IMG/VR virus record: IMGVR_UViG_2541047819_000001
Coordinates: 1-6,423 of that record
DNA: 6,423 nt
Origin: a virus
Taxonomy: Duplodnaviria > Heunggongvirae > Uroviricota > Caudoviricetes
Strand: one strand, 5' to 3'
Under the pieces are notes generated by a model. It was not told where the DNA came from, did no database searches, and saw nothing but the letters and a program-made list of their open reading frames with translations. Positions 1-6,423 of the stretch are shown here, in pieces (the first letter of the stretch is position 1; the number at the start of each line of letters is the position of its first letter). Made by a program: the position numbers and the translations under genes.

Positions 1-105
1 AAAGACGGTAAGAAAATTGATTATCCGGCGCGTCCTCTGCTCGGCTTTACCGGTGAGGATGTGCAGATGATTGAAGAGATTATCCTGGCTCACCTCGACC
101 GTTAG
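1..105 (+). CDS. 3' end of an upstream phage late gene (34 codons, ...EDVQMIEEIILAHLDR*); occupies the S/orf30 slot that precedes V in P2-like genomes; product not identified
   Basis: Frame 1 is open from the window edge to TAG at 103-105, same strand as the tail operon. I do not recognise the C-terminal peptide, so the product is left open. Confidence 0.5.
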   Translation, partial: KDGKKIDYPARPLLGFTGEDVQMIEEIILAHLDR

Positions 106-106
106 T

Positions 107-122
107 TGTGCCATTCCTGACA
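107..122 (+). promoter_or_regulatory. Candidate late-promoter activator dyad (TGT-N10-ACA) upstream of V; possible PV-type Ogr-dependent promoter element
   Basis: TGTgccattcctgACA lies about 57 bp upstream of the V ATG. P2 late promoters carry a TGT-N12-ACA dyad near -55 (from memory); the spacer here is 10, not 12, so this is tentative. Confidence 0.25.
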
Positions 123-137
123 CCTCATCGTCACATT

Positions 138-159
138 GCCGCCGGTATGACCCGGCGGC
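138..159 (+). other. GC-rich hairpin (8-bp stem GCCGCCGG / CCGGCGGC, 6-nt loop) between the upstream gene and V
   Basis: Perfect inverted repeat at 138-145 and 152-159. No clear T-tract follows (atccttcccgtt), so it is not a typical intrinsic terminator; it could be a weak terminator or an RNA-stability or regulatory element. Confidence 0.3.
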
Positions 160-171
160 ATCCTTCCCGTT

Positions 172-807
172 ATGAACACTCTCGCAAATATTCAGGAACT
201 CGCGCGCGCACTGCGCAACATGATCCGCACCGGCCTTGTCGTCGAAACCGACCTTAACGCCGGTCGCTGCCGTGTGCAGACCGGCGGCATGTGCACTGAC
301 TGGCTTCAGTGGCTGACCCATCGTGCCGGTCGTTCGCGCACATGGTGGGCACCTTCCGTGGGGGAGCAGGTGCTGATTCTGGCCGTGGGCGGTGAACTCG
401 ACACGGCGTTCGTTCTGCCGGGGATTTATTCCGGCGATAACCCCGCGCCGTCTGCGTCGGCGGATGCCCTGCATATCCGTTTCCCTGACGGGGCGGTGAT
501 TGAATATGAACCTGAAACCAGTGCACTCACGGTAAGCGGAATTAAAACGGCCAGCGTGACGGCTTCTGATTCTGTTACTGCCACGGTGCCGGTGGTCATG
601 GTGAAAGCATCAACCCGCGTCACCCTGGACACACCGGAGGTGGTCTGCACCAACAGGCTGATTACCGGCACGCTGGAAGTGCAGAAGGGCGGGACGATGC
701 GCGGCAACATTGAACACACCGGCGGTGAACTCTCATCAAACGGTAAGGTACTGCATACCCATAAACACCCCGGCGACAGCGGCGGCACAACCGGGAGCCC
801 TCTATGA
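172..807 (+). CDS. V: Baseplate central spike protein gpV (211 aa)
   Basis: Length matches P2 gpV and the N-terminus MNTLANIQELARALRNMIRTG agrees with my recollection of it. Gly/Ser/Thr-rich C-terminal region ends in an HTHKH His motif. First gene of the V-W-J-I-H-G order. Confidence 0.92.
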   Translation: MNTLANIQELARALRNMIRTGLVVETDLNAGRCRVQTGGMCTDWLQWLTHRAGRSRTWWAPSVGEQVLILAVGGELDTAFVLPGIYSGDNPAPSASADALHIRFPDGAVIEYEPETSALTVSGIKTASVTASDSVTATVPVVMVKASTRVTLDTPEVVCTNRLITGTLEVQKGGTMRGNIEHTGGELSSNGKVLHTHKHPGDSGGTTGSPL

Positions 808-1151
808 CAGCGCGTTATCTCGGAATGAATCGCAGTGATGGCCTGACGGTCACTGACCTTGAGCATATCAGCCAGAGTATCGGCGATATCCTGCGCACAC
901 CGGTCGGCTCACGGGTGATGCGTCGTGATTACGGCTCGTTGCTGGCGTCAATGATTGACCAGCCGCAGACCCCGGCGCTTGAGTTGCAGATTAAGGTCGC
1001 CTGTTACATGGCGGTGCTGAAATGGGAACCCCGCGTCACGCTGTCATCTGTCACCACGGCGCGCAGTTTTGACGGGCGAATGACGGTCACGTTAACCGGC
1101 CAGCACAACGACACCGGCCAGCCACTTTCGTTAACCATCCCTGTGAGTTGA
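804..1151 (+). CDS. W: Baseplate wedge protein gpW (115 aa), gp25-like
   Basis: Length matches P2 gpW. The GSRVMRRDYGSLL motif resembles the gp25/GPW family signature. ATG overlaps the V stop (ATGA). Confidence 0.9.
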   Translation: MTARYLGMNRSDGLTVTDLEHISQSIGDILRTPVGSRVMRRDYGSLLASMIDQPQTPALELQIKVACYMAVLKWEPRVTLSSVTTARSFDGRMTVTLTGQHNDTGQPLSLTIPVS

Positions 1152-1155
1152 AACC

Positions 1156-2064
1156 ATGCCGATTATCGACCTGAACCAGCTACCCGCACCGGATGTGGTC
1201 GAGGAGCTGGACTTTGAAACCATTCTCGCCGAACGCAAGGCGACACTGATTTCCCTTTACCCGGAAGACCAGCAGGAGGCGGTCGCCCGTACCCTGACGC
1301 TGGAATCTGAGCCTCTCGTCAAACTGCTGGAGGAAAATGCTTATCGTGAGCTTATCTGGCGTCAGCGTGTGAATGAGGCTGCACGGGCGGTGATGCTGGC
1401 CTGTGCAGCCGGTAATGACCTTGATGTGATTGGTGCCAATTACAACACCACGCGCCTGATTATCACCCCGGCAGATGATTCGACCATCCCGCCGACACCG
1501 GCAGTGATGGAATCTGACACCGATTATCGTCTGCGTATTCAGCAGGCGTTTGAAGGTTTAAGCGTCGCCGGGTCGGTGGGTGCCTATCAGTATCATGGTC
1601 GCAGTGCGGACGGGCGTGTCGCGGATATCTCTGTCACCAGTCCGTCTCCGGCCTGTGTCACCATCTCTGTGCTGTCACGTGAAAATAACGGCGTCGCATC
1701 CGAAGACCTGCTGGCTGTGGTGCGTAACGCCCTTAATGGCGAGGACGTCAGGCCGGTGGCCGACCGCGTGACCGTGCAGTCTGCCGCCATCGTTGAATAC
1801 CAGATAAACGCCACGCTGTATCTTTACCCTGGTCCCGAAAGCGAACCCATTCGCGCTGCCGCCGTGAAAAAACTGGAAGCGTATATCACGGCACAGCACC
1901 GGTTGGGGCGCGACATCCGTCTGTCTGCCATTTATGCCGCTTTGCATGTGGAAGGCGTGCAGCGTGTCGAGCTGGCTGCACCGCTGGCCGACATCGTGCT
2001 CAACAGTACGCAGGCGTCTTTTTGTACCGAATACCGCGTCGTGACCGGAGGCTCGGATGAGTGA
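1156..2064 (+). CDS. J: Baseplate wedge protein gpJ (302 aa), gp6-like
   Basis: Length matches P2 gpJ and the position follows W. A GTGAG Shine-Dalgarno-like sequence sits about 8 nt upstream of the ATG. Confidence 0.92.
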   Translation: MPIIDLNQLPAPDVVEELDFETILAERKATLISLYPEDQQEAVARTLTLESEPLVKLLEENAYRELIWRQRVNEAARAVMLACAAGNDLDVIGANYNTTRLIITPADDSTIPPTPAVMESDTDYRLRIQQAFEGLSVAGSVGAYQYHGRSADGRVADISVTSPSPACVTISVLSRENNGVASEDLLAVVRNALNGEDVRPVADRVTVQSAAIVEYQINATLYLYPGPESEPIRAAAVKKLEAYITAQHRLGRDIRLSAIYAALHVEGVQRVELAAPLADIVLNSTQASFCTEYRVVTGGSDE

Positions 2065-2587
2065 TTCGCGCCTGCTGCCGACCGGCTCATCACCGCTTGA
2101 AGTCGCCGCCGCAAAAGCCTGTGCGGAAATTGAAAAAACGCCGGTCAGTATTCGTGAGCTGTGGAACCCGGACACCTGCCCGGCAAATCTGCTGCCGTGG
2201 CTGGCGTGGGCGTTTTCGGTTGACCGCTGGGATGAAAAGTGGCCGGAAGCAACAAAACGCGCCGTTATCCGCGATGCGTATTTCATTCACTGCCATAAAG
2301 GCACTATCGGTGCAATCCGGCGTGTGGTGGAGCCGCTCGGCTATCTCATTAACGTAAAGGAATGGTGGGAGACAAACGACCCGGCCGGAACCTTTCGCCT
2401 TGATATTGGCGTACTGGAAAGCGGTATCACGGAAGAGATGTATCTGGAAATGGAACGGCTGATTGCCGATGCCAAACCCGCAAGTCGCCACCTTATCGGT
2501 CTGAACATTATCCAGGACATTCCCGGCTATCTGTATACAGGCGGTGTGGTCTGTGATGGTGATGTTATTACTGTTTATCCCGGATAA
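2057..2587 (+). CDS. I: Baseplate/tail protein gpI (176 aa)
   Basis: Length matches P2 gpI. GGAGG lies 5 nt upstream of the ATG, and the start overlaps the J stop by 8 nt. Confidence 0.9.
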   Translation: MSDSRLLPTGSSPLEVAAAKACAEIEKTPVSIRELWNPDTCPANLLPWLAWAFSVDRWDEKWPEATKRAVIRDAYFIHCHKGTIGAIRRVVEPLGYLINVKEWWETNDPAGTFRLDIGVLESGITEEMYLEMERLIADAKPASRHLIGLNIIQDIPGYLYTGGVVCDGDVITVYPG

Positions 2588-2597
2588 GTGAGAAACA

Positions 2598-5120
2598 ATG
2601 AGCACGAAATTTAAAACCGTTATCACTACTGCCGGAGCCGCAAAGCTGGCAGCCGCCACTGTCCCCGGCGGGAAAAAAGTAAACCTGTCTGCAATGGCCG
2701 TGGGTGACGGTAATGGCAAATTGCCGGTGCCGGATGCCGGTCAGACGAAACTGGTGCGTGAAGTCTGGCGTCACGCTCTGAATAAAGTCAGTGTGGATAA
2801 CAAGAATAAAAACTATATCGTGGCTGAACTGGTTGTTCCGCCAGAAGTGGGCGGCTTCTGGATGCGTGAGCTTGGTCTGTATGACGATGCCGGAACACTG
2901 ATTGCGGTATCCAACATGGCAGAAAGCTATAAGCCAGAACTGGCTGAAGGCTCCGGACGTGCGCAGACCTGCCGCATGGTTATTATTCTCAGCAACGTGG
3001 CGTCCGTTGAGCTGAGTATTGATGCCAGCACAGTGATGGCGACGCAGGATTACGTCGATGACAAAATCGCAGAGCATGAGCAGTCCCGCCGCCATCCTGA
3101 CGCCACGCTGACAGAAAAAGGTTTTACTCAGTTAAGCAGTGCAACAAACAGCACCAGTGAAAAGCAGGCTGCAACGCCAAAGGCAGTAAAAGCAGCCTAT
3201 GACAATGCTGAGAAACGTCTGCAGAAAGACCAGAACGGTGGCGATATTCCAGATAAGGACGCTTTTCTGGACAATGTTGGCGTTACCAGCCTGACGTTTA
3301 TGAAAAACAACGGCGAAATGCCGGTTGATGCTGATCTGAATACATTTGGTCCCGTTAAGGCTTATCTGGGGATCTGGTCTAAAGCTACTTCAACTAACGC
3401 AACACTGGAGAAAAATTTCCCGGAAGATAATGCTGTCGGTGTGCTTGAGGTATTCAATGGCGGTAATTTTGCAGGAATGCAGCGTTATACCACCAGAACA
3501 GGCAATGTTTATATGCGCAACCTTTCTGGCACCTGGAATGGCTCAGACGGTCCGTGGAGCTACTGGCGTCAGATTCAGTCAGCAACACGCCCTTTGAGTA
3601 CGACTATAGACCTGAATACGCTTGGAGCCGCCGAACATCTTGGTTTATGGCGTAACAGTAGCTCGGCTATAGCTTCATATGAACGCAATTATCCAGAGGA
3701 AGGCGGCTTTGCTCAGGGGATGCTTGAGATCCTCGAAGGCGGAAATTATGGAAGAACGCAACGTTATACCACTCGCCGTGGAAATATGTATGTCCGCTGC
3801 CTTGCGGCAAGCTGGGATGCATCAAATCCGCAGTGGGAACCGTGGTTAAGAGTCGGTCATCAGTCAGAGAGTCGTTATTACGAAGGTGATTTAAATGTTC
3901 TAACCGACCCCGGTATTTACAGTGTTACAGGAAAGGCAACAAACGGTCCGATGCTGGACACCGTTGGCGCGACACTACTTGGGATACTGGAAGTAATCAG
4001 ACGTTTTGATGGTGTGTCTGTCTGGCAGCGTTACACAACCACAGGGAAATCAGAAACTACACAGGGACGCACTTTTGAGCGCGTCTACGCCGGGAGCAAA
4101 TGGACCGAATGGCGAGAAGTATATAACTCCTTTTCGTTGCCTCTGAATCTGGGCATCGGTGGCGCAGTGGCAAAACTATCCAGTCTGGACTGGCAGACCT
4201 ACGATTTTGTGCCGGGCAGTCTGATAACCGTGCGGCTTGATAACATGACCAACATTCCCGACGGTATGGACTGGGGCGTCATTGATGGCAACCTGATAAA
4301 CATCGCAGTTGGTCCGAGTGATGATTCCGGTACGGGGCGCTCAATGCATGTATGGCGCAGCACTGTAAGTAAAGCGAACTACCGCTTTTTTATGGTGCGT
4401 ATTTCAGGAAATCCGGGAAGCCGCACGATCACGACAAGACGTGTGCCAATTATCGACGAAGCTCAGACATGGGCGGCGAAACAGACATTCAGCGCCGGTC
4501 TTTCAGGCGAACTGTCCGGCAATGCGGCTACAGCTACAAAGCTGAAAACGGCACGAAATATTAATGGTGTCAAATTTGATGGCACCGGCGATATAAATAT
4601 TAATACGCTGGTATCCCGGAATCGCGTCACAGCATTAAGCGGGAGTGCAAAGGGGACGCCTGGTATTCAGATGTATGAGGCATATAACAATGGCTACCCT
4701 TACACCTATGGCAATGTGCTTCATCTTACGGGGGTGTCCGCAGTTGGAGAAGGTGAATTACTTATCGGCTGGAGCGGCACCAGTGGAGGTTACGCGCCAG
4801 CATATATCCGTTCAAGGCGGGATACAGATGATGCTCAATGGTCTGGATGGGCGCAAATTTATACGACAGCTCATAAACCATCGCCAGGTGATATTGGCGC
4901 TTATACCAAGGCGGAATGTAATTCACGTTTTATTACAGGTATTCGCTTAGGTGGTTTGTCATCCCTTCCAACGTGGAATGGTACTGGCTGGCATGACAGG
5001 TCAGGGCATGTTCTTACTGGTGTTGTCAATAGTAATACTGATGAATTAATTGATATCGCGCAGGCAAGACCTGTTCAGTATTGTATTAATGGCACATGGT
5101 ATAACGCAGGGAGTATTTAA
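2598..5120 (+). CDS. H: Tail fibre protein gpH (840 aa), mosaic: conserved P2-H-like N-terminal attachment domain, three tandem ~92-aa repeats, conserved fibre junction motif, divergent C-terminal receptor-binding tip
   Basis: Single uninterrupted ORF in the H position. N-terminus [20 protein letters not shown]... is typical of P2-like fibre proteins. The motif [31 protein letters not shown] matches the conserved tail-fibre junction seen in P2 H, lambda Stf and Mu S. Confidence 0.92.
3333..4127 (+). repeat. Three tandem protein-level domain repeats (~92 aa each) inside H, with shared motif DLNxL...G-x-LE[IV]...QRYTT...W..W
   Basis: Repeat units start at 3333 (DLNTFGP), 3609 (DLNTLGA) and 3888 (DLNVLTD). 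A QRYTT core recurs at about 3478, 3757 and 4026. The copies are diverged at DNA level and similar mainly as protein. Confidence 0.7.
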
Positions 5121-5650
5121 TGATGATGCATTTAAAAAATATTAAGGCAGGGAATCCAAAAACTATTGAACAATATGAATTAACCAAACGATTTAATATT
5201 GTCTGGCTATGGTCAGATGATGGTAAAAACTGGTATGAGGAACAAAAGAATTTCCAGCCAGACACTTTAAAAATGGCCTACGACGAGAACGGTATTATTC
5301 GTTGCATTGAGAAAGATGTGTCAATGCTCAACCCTGATGGCTTGAGTGTTGTTGAGTTACCGAATATAACCGCCAACCGTCGCGCTGATATTTCAGGTAA
5401 CTGGATGTTCAAAGATGACACTGTAATTAAACGTGTATATACGGATGCAGAACGGCAGCAGCAAGCCGAAGTCCGAAAGTCAACCTTGCTTGCAGAAGCT
5501 GAGGCATTGATTCAGCCGCTGGAGCGTGCGGTCAGGCTGAATATGGCAACAGATGAGGAGCGCAGCCGACTGGAGGCATGGGAACGCTACAGCGTTCTGG
5601 TCAGTCGTGTGGATCCTGCAAATCCTGAATGGCCGGAACTACCACAATAA
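5120..5650 (+). CDS. G: Tail fibre assembly chaperone gpG (176 aa), Tfa family
   Basis: Length is close to P2 gpG. C-terminus [26 protein letters not shown] resembles the lambda Tfa C-terminus (...LEAWKKYRVLLNRVDTS..EWP..P, from memory). ATG overlaps the H stop (TAATG); GGGAG lies about 8 nt upstream. Confidence 0.9.
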
Positions 5651-5655
5651 ATACA

Positions 5656-5682
5656 GGCGGGCGGATTGCCCGCCTTTTCTTT
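5656..5682 (+). terminator. Rho-independent terminator downstream of G
   Basis: Stem GGCGGGC (5657-5663) pairs with GCCCGCC (5668-5674) around a 4-nt loop, followed by TTTTCTTT (5675-5682), 6 nt after the G stop codon. Confidence 0.7.
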
Positions 5683-5779
5683 ATCTGTTGTTTCATCCCC
5701 TGACCAGTCAGGACAAATAGCGTCTCACGCCCTGTACAACTGAAAATACCACTCACCCATTAACCACGGAGTTAAACGG
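5683..5779 (+). promoter_or_regulatory. Candidate late promoter region for the FI operon (PF-like), containing dyad CCTGAC-N2-GTCAGG at 5699-5712
   Basis: In P2 a late promoter (PF) precedes FI. A dyad lies about 74 bp upstream of the FI ATG and GGAG sits at 5767-5770. I could not find an exact TGT-N12-ACA match, so the assignment is positional. Confidence 0.3.
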
Positions 5780-6423
5780 ATGAGTGATTATCATCACGGT
5801 GTGCAGGTGCTGGAGATTAACGACGGCACCCGCGTCATTTCCACCGTATCCACCGCCATTGTCGGCATGGTCTGCACGGCCAGCGATGCGGATGCGGAAA
5901 CCTTCCCCCTCAATAAACCGGTGCTGATTACCAATGTGCAGAGCGCAATTGCAAAGGCCGGTAAAAAAGGCACGCTGGCGGCATCGTTGCAGGCTATCGC
6001 CGACCAGTCAAAACCGGTCACCGTTGTCGTGCGTGTGGAAGACGGCACCGGCGACGACGAGGAAACGAAACTCGCGCAGACCGTTTCCAATATCATCGGC
6101 ACCACCGACGAAAACGGTCAGTACACCGGACTGAAAGCCCTGCTGGCGGCGGAGTCAGTAACCGGTGTTAAACCGCGTATTCTCGGCGTGCCGGGACTGG
6201 ACACCAAAGAGGTGGCTGTTGCACTGGCATCAGTCTGTCAGAAGCTGCGCGCTTTCGGGTATATCAGCGCATGGGGCTGTAAGACCATTTCCGAGGTGAA
6301 AGCCTACCGCCAGAATTTCAGCCAGCGTGAGCTGATGGTCATCTGGCCGGATTTCCTCGCATGGGATACGGTCACCAGTACCACCGCCACCGCGTATGCC
6401 ACCGCCCGTGCGCTGGGTCTGCG
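5780..6423 (+). CDS. FI: Tail sheath protein gpFI, 5' portion (214 codons, continues beyond window)
   Basis: ATG at 5780 with a GGAG RBS; the frame stays open to the window end. N-terminus MSDYHHGVQVLEINDGTRVISTVSTAIVGMVCTASDADAETFPLNKPVLITNVQSAI agrees with my recollection of P2 sheath protein FI. Confidence 0.9.
   Translation, partial: MSDYHHGVQVLEINDGTRVISTVSTAIVGMVCTASDADAETFPLNKPVLITNVQSAIAKAGKKGTLAASLQAIADQSKPVTVVVRVEDGTGDDEETKLAQTVSNIIGTTDENGQYTGLKALLAAESVTGVKPRILGVPGLDTKEVAVALASVCQKLRAFGYISAWGCKTISEVKAYRQNFSQRELMVIWPDFLAWDTVTSTTATAYATARALGL

Follow-up and report, generated by a model that had tools for sequence, protein, structure and literature searches.

A mosaic tail-fibre and chaperone region in a P2-like prophage and the family-wide GC profile that it carries

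Introduction

Phages P2, Mu and P1 exchange segments of their tail fibres, a textbook case of phage mosaicism since 1992, when Haggard-Ljungquist et al. (title cited in PMC13100340) reportedly proposed horizontal transfer of the P2 fibre genes.

The described systems closest to the locus analysed here are the H and G genes of P2, the S'-U' fibre and chaperone modules of Mu and P1 (PDB 8ju3; Mu S-U complex, PDB 5yvq), an engineered P2-P1(S') fibre that, in combination with U', directs P2/P4 particles to Shigella flexneri (PMC9942202), and the two-domain model of fibre chaperones (Mu; Pam3 gp25), in which a variable N-terminal domain binds the fibre and the C-terminal domain is conserved (PMC9608196, which summarizes the structure of the Mu chaperone).

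The locus lies in a window of 6,423 nucleotides, which is the whole stretch of DNA that was analysed. With P2 it shares the operon position V-W-J-I-H-G-FI, the N-terminal domain of H up to nucleotide 3203, the length and family of G, a G C-terminal domain that is 84% identical, and the course of GC content along H and G. It differs from P2 in an H of 840 rather than 669 amino acids, whose sequence past aa 202 has no relation to that of P2 H and comprises three knob-like repeats and a tip of S' type, in a G N-terminal domain with only 68-74% identity to P2 G, and in the absence of the P2 cargo gene Z/fun between G and FI. With the modules of Mu and P1 it shares a tip that is 71% identical to Mu S' and a U'-like N-terminal domain of G, but there is no invertase, no cix/gix site and no second fibre copy in the window, the fibre N-terminus is P2-type, and the C-terminal domain of G is not that of U' (31-35%). 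The engineered P2-P1(S') construct has the same plan, in that a P2 fibre N-terminus is combined with an S'-type distal part and an S'-matched chaperone domain, but its junction lies at aa 370 of P2 H, whereas that of the window fibre, which is natural, lies at aa 202-226, and it uses an intact U', whereas the chaperone in the window is a hybrid. As in the two-domain model, the variable N-terminal part of the chaperone tracks the type of the tip loosely and the C-terminal part is conserved; in the subfamily of the window, however, N-terminal domains are 68-80% identical even between tips that are only 27-53% identical, and tip and N-terminal domain can uncouple.

A first-pass annotation of this DNA proposed that positions 3100-5460, comprising the receptor-binding part of the fibre and the 5' two-thirds of the chaperone gene, form a low-GC cassette whose two parts were acquired together from a lower-GC donor. 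The present work evaluates the homology and the base composition of the region with respect to this proposal.

Results

Gene content of the window

The gene order V-W-J-I-H-G followed by the start of FI, as read from the open reading frame map and from Pfam matches, is that of the late operon of P2-like phages (Peduovirus), and the order in P2, YpM22 and the PEC41 prophage is as in the window, with H between I and the chaperone gene. The genes and flanking features are as follows.

172-807, + strand: V, baseplate (Pfam Phage_base_V with Phage_spike)
804-1151, + strand: W, baseplate (Pfam GPW_gp25)
1156-2064, + strand: J, baseplate (Pfam Baseplate_J)
2057-2587, + strand: I, baseplate (Pfam Tail_P2_I)
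172-2587, + strand: high-GC backbone V/W/J/I, GC 0.54-0.60
2598-5120, + strand: H, tail fibre, open reading frame of 840 aa, GC 0.498, GC3 0.468
5120-5650, + strand: G, tail fibre assembly chaperone, open reading frame with PF02413
5655-5675, + strand: GC-rich hairpin followed by a T run, terminator-like, directly 3' of G
5780-6423, + strand: FI (tail sheath), 5' part only, continuing beyond the window; translation DYHHGVQVLEINDGTRV...

Positions 1-2597 are 96-98% identical to many Peduoviruses, and among cultured phages the matches of the baseplate genes are restricted to Peduoviruses, at 96-98%. At the other end, the FI region is 93% identical to FI of P2 and YpM22, with GC content back at the backbone level, and in the PEC41 prophage the annotated tail sheath gene begins 130 nt past G. 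The hairpin lies at the place equivalent to that of the putative rho-independent V-operon terminator annotated downstream of G in P2.

Domains and breakpoints of the fibre gene

H is a P2-type gpH both by its domain order, which is an N-terminal tail-collar domain (PF12571 at aa 1-151, E = 4.9e-57) followed by a Phage_fiber_2 repeat (PF03406 at aa 170-210, E = 2.1e-21), and by its position in the operon, and in the near-identical PEC41 prophage it is annotated as a tail-collar fibre protein. Its parts are the following, L012 being a P1-like phage-plasmid.

2598-3203, + strand: conserved N-terminal, baseplate-proximal part (blastn match to P2, locus L005, spanning 1364-3203)
3318-4142, + strand: shaft with three knob-like repeats in tandem, each about 90 aa long (R1 3318-3593, R2 3594-3872, R3 3873-4142)
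4473-4604, + strand: conserved linker motif of 44 aa, also present at the same position of YpM22 H and in two copies in L012 S'v
4566-5117, + strand: distal tip of Mu/P1 S' type, putatively receptor-binding (PDB 8ju3, Mu S'v, L012 S'v)

In blastn comparisons the similarity to P2 H stops at 3203 and that to the S'v gene of the phage-plasmid begins at 3277, and in the protein the junction lies at the motif N[VL]GVTSLTF, at aa 226. The three repeats, which self-BLAST did not report, were detected by segment-by-segment comparison; R1 is 43% identical to R2 (E = 1e-26) and 31% identical to R3 (E = 1e-4), and they have the motif DLN..G.LEV..QRYTT in common. Further breakpoints fall inside the linker motif, where similarity to the YpM22 group stops at 4565 and similarity to D6 S' begins at 4530, the D6 S'-U' match spanning 4530-5469; the coincidence of these breakpoints suggests that the motif may be a recombination junction.

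Residues 736-840 of H align with PDB 8ju3, a chimera of Mu S and S' (E = 1.4e-44 for this stretch, 3.4e-63 for the whole chain). The tip and Mu S'v share 71% identity; at the DNA level the tip is 94-99% identical to the S'v gene of the phage-plasmid, and it is not alignable with the tips of YpM22 or P2 (27-60%). The receptor specificity of H is predicted to be S'-type.

The chaperone gene

G belongs to the Caudo_TAP family of P2 G and Mu U, as indicated by its Pfam match (PF02413, E = 7e-35) together with full-length similarity to a characterised member, Mu U, with which residues 2-176 align (PDB 5yvq_B, E = 6e-86). Its ATG start lies at 5120 or 5123 and overlaps or abuts the stop codon of H (TAATG). 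It consists of two domains.

5123-5461, + strand: N-terminal domain, aa 1-113, U'-like, putatively fibre-binding
5462-5650, + strand: C-terminal domain, aa 114-176, conserved, P2 G/U type

Among cultured phages, the N-terminal domain has its best tblastn matches in U' of D108, Mu, P1, D6, P7 and RCS47 (75-80%), and its identity to Peduovirus G is 70-73%. The allele is rare: of 5426 complete E. coli genomes only 4 carry it at 99% identity or more, all four of pig origin, and the next best match is 77% identical. The C-terminal domain is 84-86% identical to G of P2, YpM22 and NCTC11151 and 79% identical to U of Mu and D6, and it has 31-35% identity to the U' proteins of Mu and D6; from position 5540 the DNA identity to NCTC11151 and YpM22 climbs to 96-100%. 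On these sequence comparisons G is a hybrid, in which a U'-like N-terminal domain is joined to a C-terminal domain of the P2 G/U type at about 5450-5540, the junction (aa 113-140) being near the domain boundary. Across loci, the distance between fibre tips correlates with the distance between G N-terminal domains with r = 0.65 and with that between C-terminal domains with r = 0.42. By analogy with what the literature reports for the Mu chaperone, the N-terminal domain of G would bind the fibre tip and the conserved C-terminal domain would drive trimer assembly.

Sharing with P1-like and Mu-like phages

The P1-like phage-plasmid carries S, U, U', S'v, cin and a cix site, and positions 3277-5470 of the window align contiguously with its invertible S'v-U' segment at 91.5% identity. 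When identity is computed per 100 nt, it passes from 94-100% in H (93-100% to S'v over positions 3600-5100) to 63-80% in the N-terminal domain of G. Since the tip is 94-99% identical and the N-terminal domain of G only 63-80%, the two have different histories, and the corresponding values of 97% for the tip and 78% for the N-terminal domain show them uncoupled in this phage-plasmid. Among cultured phages, the best matches of the tip and the 5' part of G are P1-like (D6, JL22) and Mu-like phages at 77-78%, as against Peduoviruses at 96-98% for the baseplate genes, which bears out the expectation that the tip would find its closest relatives in other phage lineages than the baseplate. Small patches of H-G have differing nearest relatives. 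The window contains no invertase open reading frame and no match to the D6 cix core at up to 4 mismatches, this core being present in the phage-plasmid; of the elements of an S'-U' module, it has the S' tip, and neither a full-length U' chaperone nor an invertible segment.

Shape of the GC profile

The GC content of the window was analysed by penalised-likelihood segmentation with penalties calibrated on shuffled sequences; at penalties of at least 7, 40 of 40 mononucleotide shuffles gave a single segment. The heterogeneity of the window is well beyond chance, and four segments are obtained from the change-point analysis.

1-2340: GC 0.585
2341-5020: GC 0.502
5021-5440: trough, GC 0.369, reaching from 100 nt before the end of H to 320 nt into G
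5441-6423: GC 0.567

The drop in GC content described in the first-pass annotation exists, but its shape is that of a plateau at about 50% and a deep trough of 420 nt, rather than that of a uniform low-GC block over 3100-5460. The range of 52-65% read for V/W/J/I and the 5' end of H agrees with the computed values (0.604, 0.578, 0.581, 0.542 and 0.538, respectively), as does the figure of about 30% for the start of G (0.32, 0.30 and 0.37 in 60-nt lines). The range of about 38-48% for H beyond 3100 was overstated as a drop, since 200-nt windows of the H interior lie at 0.445-0.535 until about 4900 and 3100-4565 has 0.497, and the value of about 62% for the final third of G was likewise too extreme (0.553 at positions 5461-5650). 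A sharp step was recovered close to the proposed right-hand boundary at about 5460, with a support interval of 5430-5450 (0.369 vs 0.557, Fisher p = 9e-6). The left-hand boundary, which had been placed at about 3100, moves to a supported interval of 2200-2500 within the conserved gene I; forcing this step to 3100 costs 3.9 log-likelihood units, and 2341-3099 (0.520) and 3100-5020 (0.495) do not differ in GC content (p = 0.23).

GC content in related loci and its components

The same profile recurs in a set of 79 related loci that comprise 11 types of fibre tip and in which GC content is 0.566 upstream, 0.494 in the body of H, 0.428 in the last 100 nt of H, 0.386 (range 0.372-0.406) in the first 320 nt of G and 0.542 in the rest of G; these loci are non-independent, many being near-identical Peduovirus prophages, and the result is backed by three unrelated phage groups. 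GC content is 0.38 then 0.53 along P2 G, 0.38 then 0.52 along D6 U and 0.385 then 0.47 along D6 U'; in Mu it is 0.545 in the baseplate genes, 0.458 in S, 0.378 then 0.543 along U and 0.381 then 0.491 along U'. The close relative YpM22 has 0.49 in H and 0.45 in G, and 0.53-0.62 in its remaining late virion and lysis genes. Because the profile of the window recurs in the 79 loci, in P2 G and in U and U' of D6 and Mu, GC content is no evidence of acquisition by the window phage.

The GC shift relative to the backbone was decomposed into an amino-acid part and a synonymous part, measured against backbone codon usage. These parts are, respectively, -0.122 and -0.094 in the N-terminal domain of G, +0.040 and -0.062 in its C-terminal domain, -0.026 and -0.064 in the interior of H, and -0.007 and -0.094 at positions 4566-5020 of H. 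Amino-acid composition accounts for about 0.16 of the 0.19 jump in GC content at 5440, and the step there, which falls at a boundary between protein domains, is for the most part an effect of this composition. A paper on codon usage (PMC2266997) makes no statement specific to P2 H/G.

The GC boundaries had also been taken to coincide with domain limits. At the right this stands, in that the junction of G at about 5450-5540 is near the step at 5440, although the step is also present in homologues that have no junction there; at the left it does not, since there is no GC step at 3100, and the step at 2200-2500 does not coincide with the homology breaks at 3203-3277. A scan of species-representative genomes with the fibre tip gave only 9 loci (Erwinia, E. 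coli, Kluyvera, Pantoea and one MAG), with no close match and no low-GC host among them, and no donor taxon of low GC content emerged; the tip has its closest genomic relatives in Enterobacterales, in loci at 43-56% GC. A compositionally foreign island, that is, a recent low-GC import, was considered and rejected, given that the left-hand step misses the homology breaks, the profile is family-wide and there is no matching donor.

Discussion

The region is very probably a host-range module of a P2-like prophage which is mosaic on a fine scale and whose low GC content belongs to a shared pool. H would be a trimeric tail fibre whose conserved N-terminus docks on the baseplate and whose distal two-thirds, made up of the three knob-like repeats, the linker motif and the S'-type tip, bind a cell-surface receptor, and the N-terminal domain of G would grip the fibre tip while its C-terminal domain drives trimer assembly. 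The mosaic would have been built through repeated recombination at short conserved linker motifs, with segments drawn from a pool of fibre and chaperone sequence that P1-like phage-plasmids and Mu-like phages have in common with Peduoviruses. The body and tip of the fibre are nearly identical to a P1-like S'v gene, and G joins its U'-like N-terminal domain to a P2/U-type C-terminal domain. The lower GC content would be a property of this pool, present in each lineage that carries it, with two components: a synonymous-codon shift throughout H and G, and the amino-acid composition of the N-terminal domain of G, which generates the sharp 0.37-to-0.56 step within G.

It is unlikely that the whole of 3100-5460, with the receptor-binding part of H and the 5' two-thirds of G, arrived in one event from a lower-GC donor whose composition it still displays. 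The contiguous match of 3277-5470 to the phage-plasmid at 91.5% would suit such an event, as would the GC content of that locus (0.468, P1-like elements having about 47%), but the identity is 94-100% in H and 63-80% in the N-terminal domain of G, and 3100-4565 is 95% identical to the same best-match Peduoviruses as the flanks, which together with the differing relatives of the smaller patches argues against a single cassette. Mean GC content is indeed 0.473 in 3100-5460 and 0.57 in the flanks, but the profile has no step at 3100, amino-acid composition explains most of the one at 5440, and the same profile accompanies unrelated tips and is present in P2, Mu and D6. The synonymous GC deficit spans both H and G and would agree with a pool that, on a deep time scale, came as a whole from a lower-GC source, but the closest genomic relatives of the tip point to Enterobacterales and to no low-GC taxon. 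Joint transfer of the tip and the N-terminal domain of G is only partly supported: an S'-type tip does accompany an N-terminal domain closest to U' proteins, and tip distance follows this domain (r = 0.65) more than the C-terminal one (r = 0.42), but the divergence of the two from the phage-plasmid is unequal. The alignments do support the distal fibre as a horizontally shared module.

The region might instead have been inherited vertically, with its GC variation produced by protein-level constraints alone, and both the share of the 5440 jump explained by amino acids and the family-wide conservation of the profile agree with this; a synonymous deficit of 0.06-0.14 nevertheless persists after amino-acid control, and the match of 3600-5100 to a P1-like phage-plasmid at 93-100%, together with the sharp breakpoints against other Peduoviruses, is incompatible with vertical descent, which makes such an explanation extremely improbable. 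There is also a slim chance that the AT-rich stretch (GC 0.37-0.41) formed by the 5' two-thirds of G/U and the final 100 nt of the preceding fibre gene, which is sharply bounded in P2-like, Mu-like and P1-like phages, is kept by selection on the DNA or mRNA, beyond the effects of ancestry and protein composition alone. The targets of such selection could be translational coupling, or the translation rate or recombination at the fibre-chaperone junction, and if this were true, the natural hybrid G would show that N- and C-terminal domains can be freely re-paired.

As a fine-scale mosaic with the GC content of a shared pool, the region is an ordinary example of a long-known kind of fibre and chaperone region and contributes little new biology, the two-domain logic of the chaperone having already been published. 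The methodological lesson is that a GC step of this kind is here the mark of a protein domain boundary and of a family-wide trait and not of recent import. The locus also presents a natural and presumably functional design, in which a P2 fibre N-terminus carries a distal part of S' type and is accompanied by a hybrid chaperone, and this design could guide the retargeting of P2/P4 delivery particles or tailocins.

Gene content and nearest genomes

An ORF map and Pfam matches place a P2-type late operon in the window, with the following features.

Late-operon features (V to G from the ORF map and Pfam)
172-807, + strand: V, spike
804-1151, + strand: W, gp25-like
1156-2064, + strand: J
2057-2587, + strand: I
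2598-5120, + strand: H, tail fibre, 840 aa
5120 or 5123 (alternative starts) to 5650, + strand: G, fibre assembly chaperone
5655-5675: terminator-like hairpin, 3' of G
from about 5780: FI, tail sheath, 5' part

Many Peduoviruses, among them L-413C, vB_YpM_50 and PhiR44_1, match positions 1-2597 at 96-98% identity, and the nearest complete genome, a prophage in the pig E. coli strain PEC41, is 96.3% identical across the whole window. At its C-terminal apex (700-803), the V spike differs from PEC41 by 45 mismatches per 100 nt and a 6-nt indel while the remainder is 97-98% identical, which suggests that the spike tip may be a separate small mosaic cassette. The G-FI gap of about 130 nt (5651-5779), which contains the hairpin, holds no cargo gene, whereas P2 has Z/fun at this site and vB_YpM_22 (YpM22), a close Peduovirus relative, has a 1.1-kb ORF of 37% GC.

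GC profile

The GC content by gene is 0.604 in V, 0.578 in W, 0.581 in J, 0.542 in I, 0.498 in H and 0.444 in G. Change points were located by penalised-likelihood segmentation, with break intervals taken from the profile likelihood and shuffled sequences used as the control.

GC segments of the window
1-2340: 0.585
2341-5020: 0.502
5021-5440: 0.369
5441-6423: 0.567

The breaks fall at 2200-2500, 4890-5040 and 5430-5450, and the main anomaly is a 420-nt trough across the H/G junction. The heterogeneity described in the first-pass annotation is real, since the same segmentation found no break in the shuffled sequences, each of which remained a single segment as against four in the window. The right edge of the low-GC region, which had been put at 5460, was correct to within 10-30 nt. 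The step proposed at 3100 is absent: a break placed there is 3.9 log-likelihood units below the best position, and there is no significant GC difference between 2341-3099 (0.520) and 3100-5020 (0.495). The 38-48% GC given for H was likewise overstated, the measured value being about 0.50.

The drop begins within gene I, a conserved baseplate gene, in its 3' half (2200-2600, GC2 0.37), upstream of every homology breakpoint. Because the sequence here is 96-98% conserved among Peduoviruses, this drop is characteristic of the family, not a scar of recombination.

Cause of the low GC content

The proposal that the region was recently imported from a low-GC donor fails in its GC argument, because the profile is common to 79 IMG/VR loci, P2, D6 (a P1-like phage) and Mu. 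In the 79 loci, which cover 11 fibre-tip types (13 with two D6 reference pairs added), GC is 0.566 in the upstream genes, 0.494 in the H body, 0.428 in the last 100 nt of H, 0.386 (range 0.372-0.406) in the first 320 nt of G and 0.542 in the rest of G. The 5' and 3' parts of the chaperone gene have values of 0.38 and 0.53 in P2 G, 0.38 and 0.52 in D6 U, and 0.385 and 0.47 in D6 U'; in Mu, the baseplate genes are at 0.545, S at 0.458, U at 0.378 and then 0.543, and U' at 0.381 and then 0.491. In vB_YpM_22 (genome 0.515), H is at 0.49 and G at 0.45, with the other late virion and lysis genes at 0.53-0.62. The same GC profile is thus found wherever the H-G gene pair occurs.

The deficit was divided into amino-acid and synonymous effects by re-coding the amino acids of each segment with backbone codon usage.

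Amino-acid and synonymous effects on GC
G N-domain: amino-acid -0.122, synonymous -0.094
G C-domain: amino-acid +0.040, synonymous -0.062
H interior: amino-acid -0.026, synonymous -0.064
H 4566-5020: amino-acid -0.007, synonymous -0.094

Given this split between the two G domains, the step at 5440 is mainly a protein domain boundary, and a moderate synonymous shift runs throughout the H-G module, the conserved G C-domain included. The GC pattern, a property of a shared fibre-gene pool, neither dates nor locates an acquisition by this phage. Among the genomes carrying the closest relatives of the tip, which are Enterobacterales, no low-GC taxon was found. P1-like elements are at about 47% GC (0.468 in L012, a P1-like phage-plasmid locus) and are a plausible reservoir.

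Mosaic structure of the fibre gene

Breakpoints were obtained from pairwise comparisons of the window with its relatives. Similarity to canonical P2 H runs out at 3203; the best Peduovirus matches, the vB_YpM_22 group, are about 95-100% identical up to 4565 and do not match beyond it; and the D6 S'-U' genes match 4530-5469 at 74-77%. Of the relatives, L012 is the most informative; it belongs to a 95-kb IMG/VR contig that matches phage P1 at 91% and carries S, U, U', S'v, the invertase gene cin and a cix crossover site. Its S'v-U' genes are 91.5% identical to 3277-5470, unevenly so: 75-87% over 3300-3600, 93-100% over 3600-5100 and only 63-80% over the G N-domain (5100-5470). The nearest relative also differs between the patches at 3100-3270 and 3440-3600. 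Given the uneven L012 identity and these patches, the single cassette proposed at 3100-5460 gives way to a nested fine-scale mosaic.

The two patches can be delimited more closely. The stretch 3113-3260 is 100% identical to YpM22 and to the relative L015 but 82% to PEC41, and 3452-3587 is 97.5% identical to the relative L008 but 75% to YpM22, PEC41 and L012; such 20-25% divergence from otherwise near-identical relatives looks like exchange of gene-conversion size. Over the 1468 nt of 4527-5994 (H tip, G, intergenic region and FI start), PEC41 has 2 mismatches, while the remaining window differs by 2-3%, which suggests that this stretch was exchanged very recently between two Peduovirus backbones.

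A conserved linker motif at 4473-4604, which reads '...QTF.(G/A)[23 protein letters not shown]...', contains the 4530-4565 breakpoint, at which the YpM22 match ends and the D6 match begins, and recurs in YpM22 H and twice in L012 S'v. This distribution fits a portable recombination junction. In the 668-aa S'v ORF the copies lie at aa 49 and 495, one of them just inside the cix site.

Within H, three tandem knob-like repeats, each about 90 aa long, occupy 3318-4142 and have the common motif DLN..G.LEV..QRYTT..W..W. Repeats R1 and R2 are 43% identical (E = 1e-26), a Pfam search of the repeats gave no match at E <= 0.01, and the S'v gene of L012 carries the same repeats. Non-mobilizable E. coli plasmids of 47-49 kb match the H-body DNA (3215-4583) at about 88%. 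At the distal end, the Mu S/S' chimera structure 8ju3 aligns with H aa 736-840 (E = 1.4e-44 for the stretch, 3.4e-63 for the whole chain), and this stretch is 71% identical to Mu S'v and only 39% to Mu S.

The chaperone and its coupling to the tip

Mu U (5yvq_B) aligns with G end to end (E = 6e-86), but G is a hybrid of a U'-like N-domain and a C-domain of the P2 G/U type. Over aa 1-113 (N-domain), identity is 76-82% to Mu and D6 U' as against 68-74% to P2 G, YpM22 G, Mu U and D6 U; over aa 114-176 (C-domain), it is 79-86% to P2 G and U and 31-35% to U'. In a tblastn search of cultured phages, labelled U' genes (D108, Mu, P1, RCS47, D6) were the top N-domain matches at 75-80%, the remaining leading matches were Mu-like, P1-like and similar non-Peduovirus phages at 75-80%, and Peduovirus G proteins ranked below all of these at 70-73%. 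From 5540 on, DNA identity to P2-type G genes climbs to 96-100%. The N-domain allele is rare, occurring at 99% identity or more in 4 of 5426 complete E. coli genomes, with the next best at 77%.

This hybrid fits the published two-part model of the chaperone, in which the N-domain binds the fibre and the C-domain is conserved (PMC9608196). The expectation that the chaperone N-domain matches the type of tip is supported in that a U'-like N-domain lies beside an S'-type tip; the coupling, judged from sequence comparison, is loose. L012 has a tip 94-99% identical to that of the window and an N-domain only about 80% identical; across 81 fibre-chaperone pairs, the distance between tips correlates with that between N-domains (r = 0.65) and with that between C-domains (r = 0.42); and the N-domains of several tip types are 87-94% identical where the tips themselves reach only 38-76%. 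The 4562-nt IMG/VR contig L009 has the same tip (98% aa), with G N- and C-domains 91% and 76% identical to those of the window, and bears a second, inverted partial fibre copy (68.6% match); it probably represents a further invertible-segment context of the tip type.

Relation to known systems

A 1992 paper by Haggard-Ljungquist et al., whose title is cited in PMC13100340, reportedly proposed that P2, Mu and P1 exchange fibre genes horizontally. The systems of Mu and P1 have an invertase and crossover sites, whereas neither was found in the window, so its fibre is fixed and not switchable. The observation made in the first-pass annotation is partly confirmed, and its interpretation partly supported. 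P2/P4 particles given an engineered P2-P1(S') fibre together with U' are redirected to Shigella flexneri (PMC9942202). In the window, this construct has a natural counterpart with a hybrid chaperone. As a member of a well-known kind, the H-G feature is ordinary.
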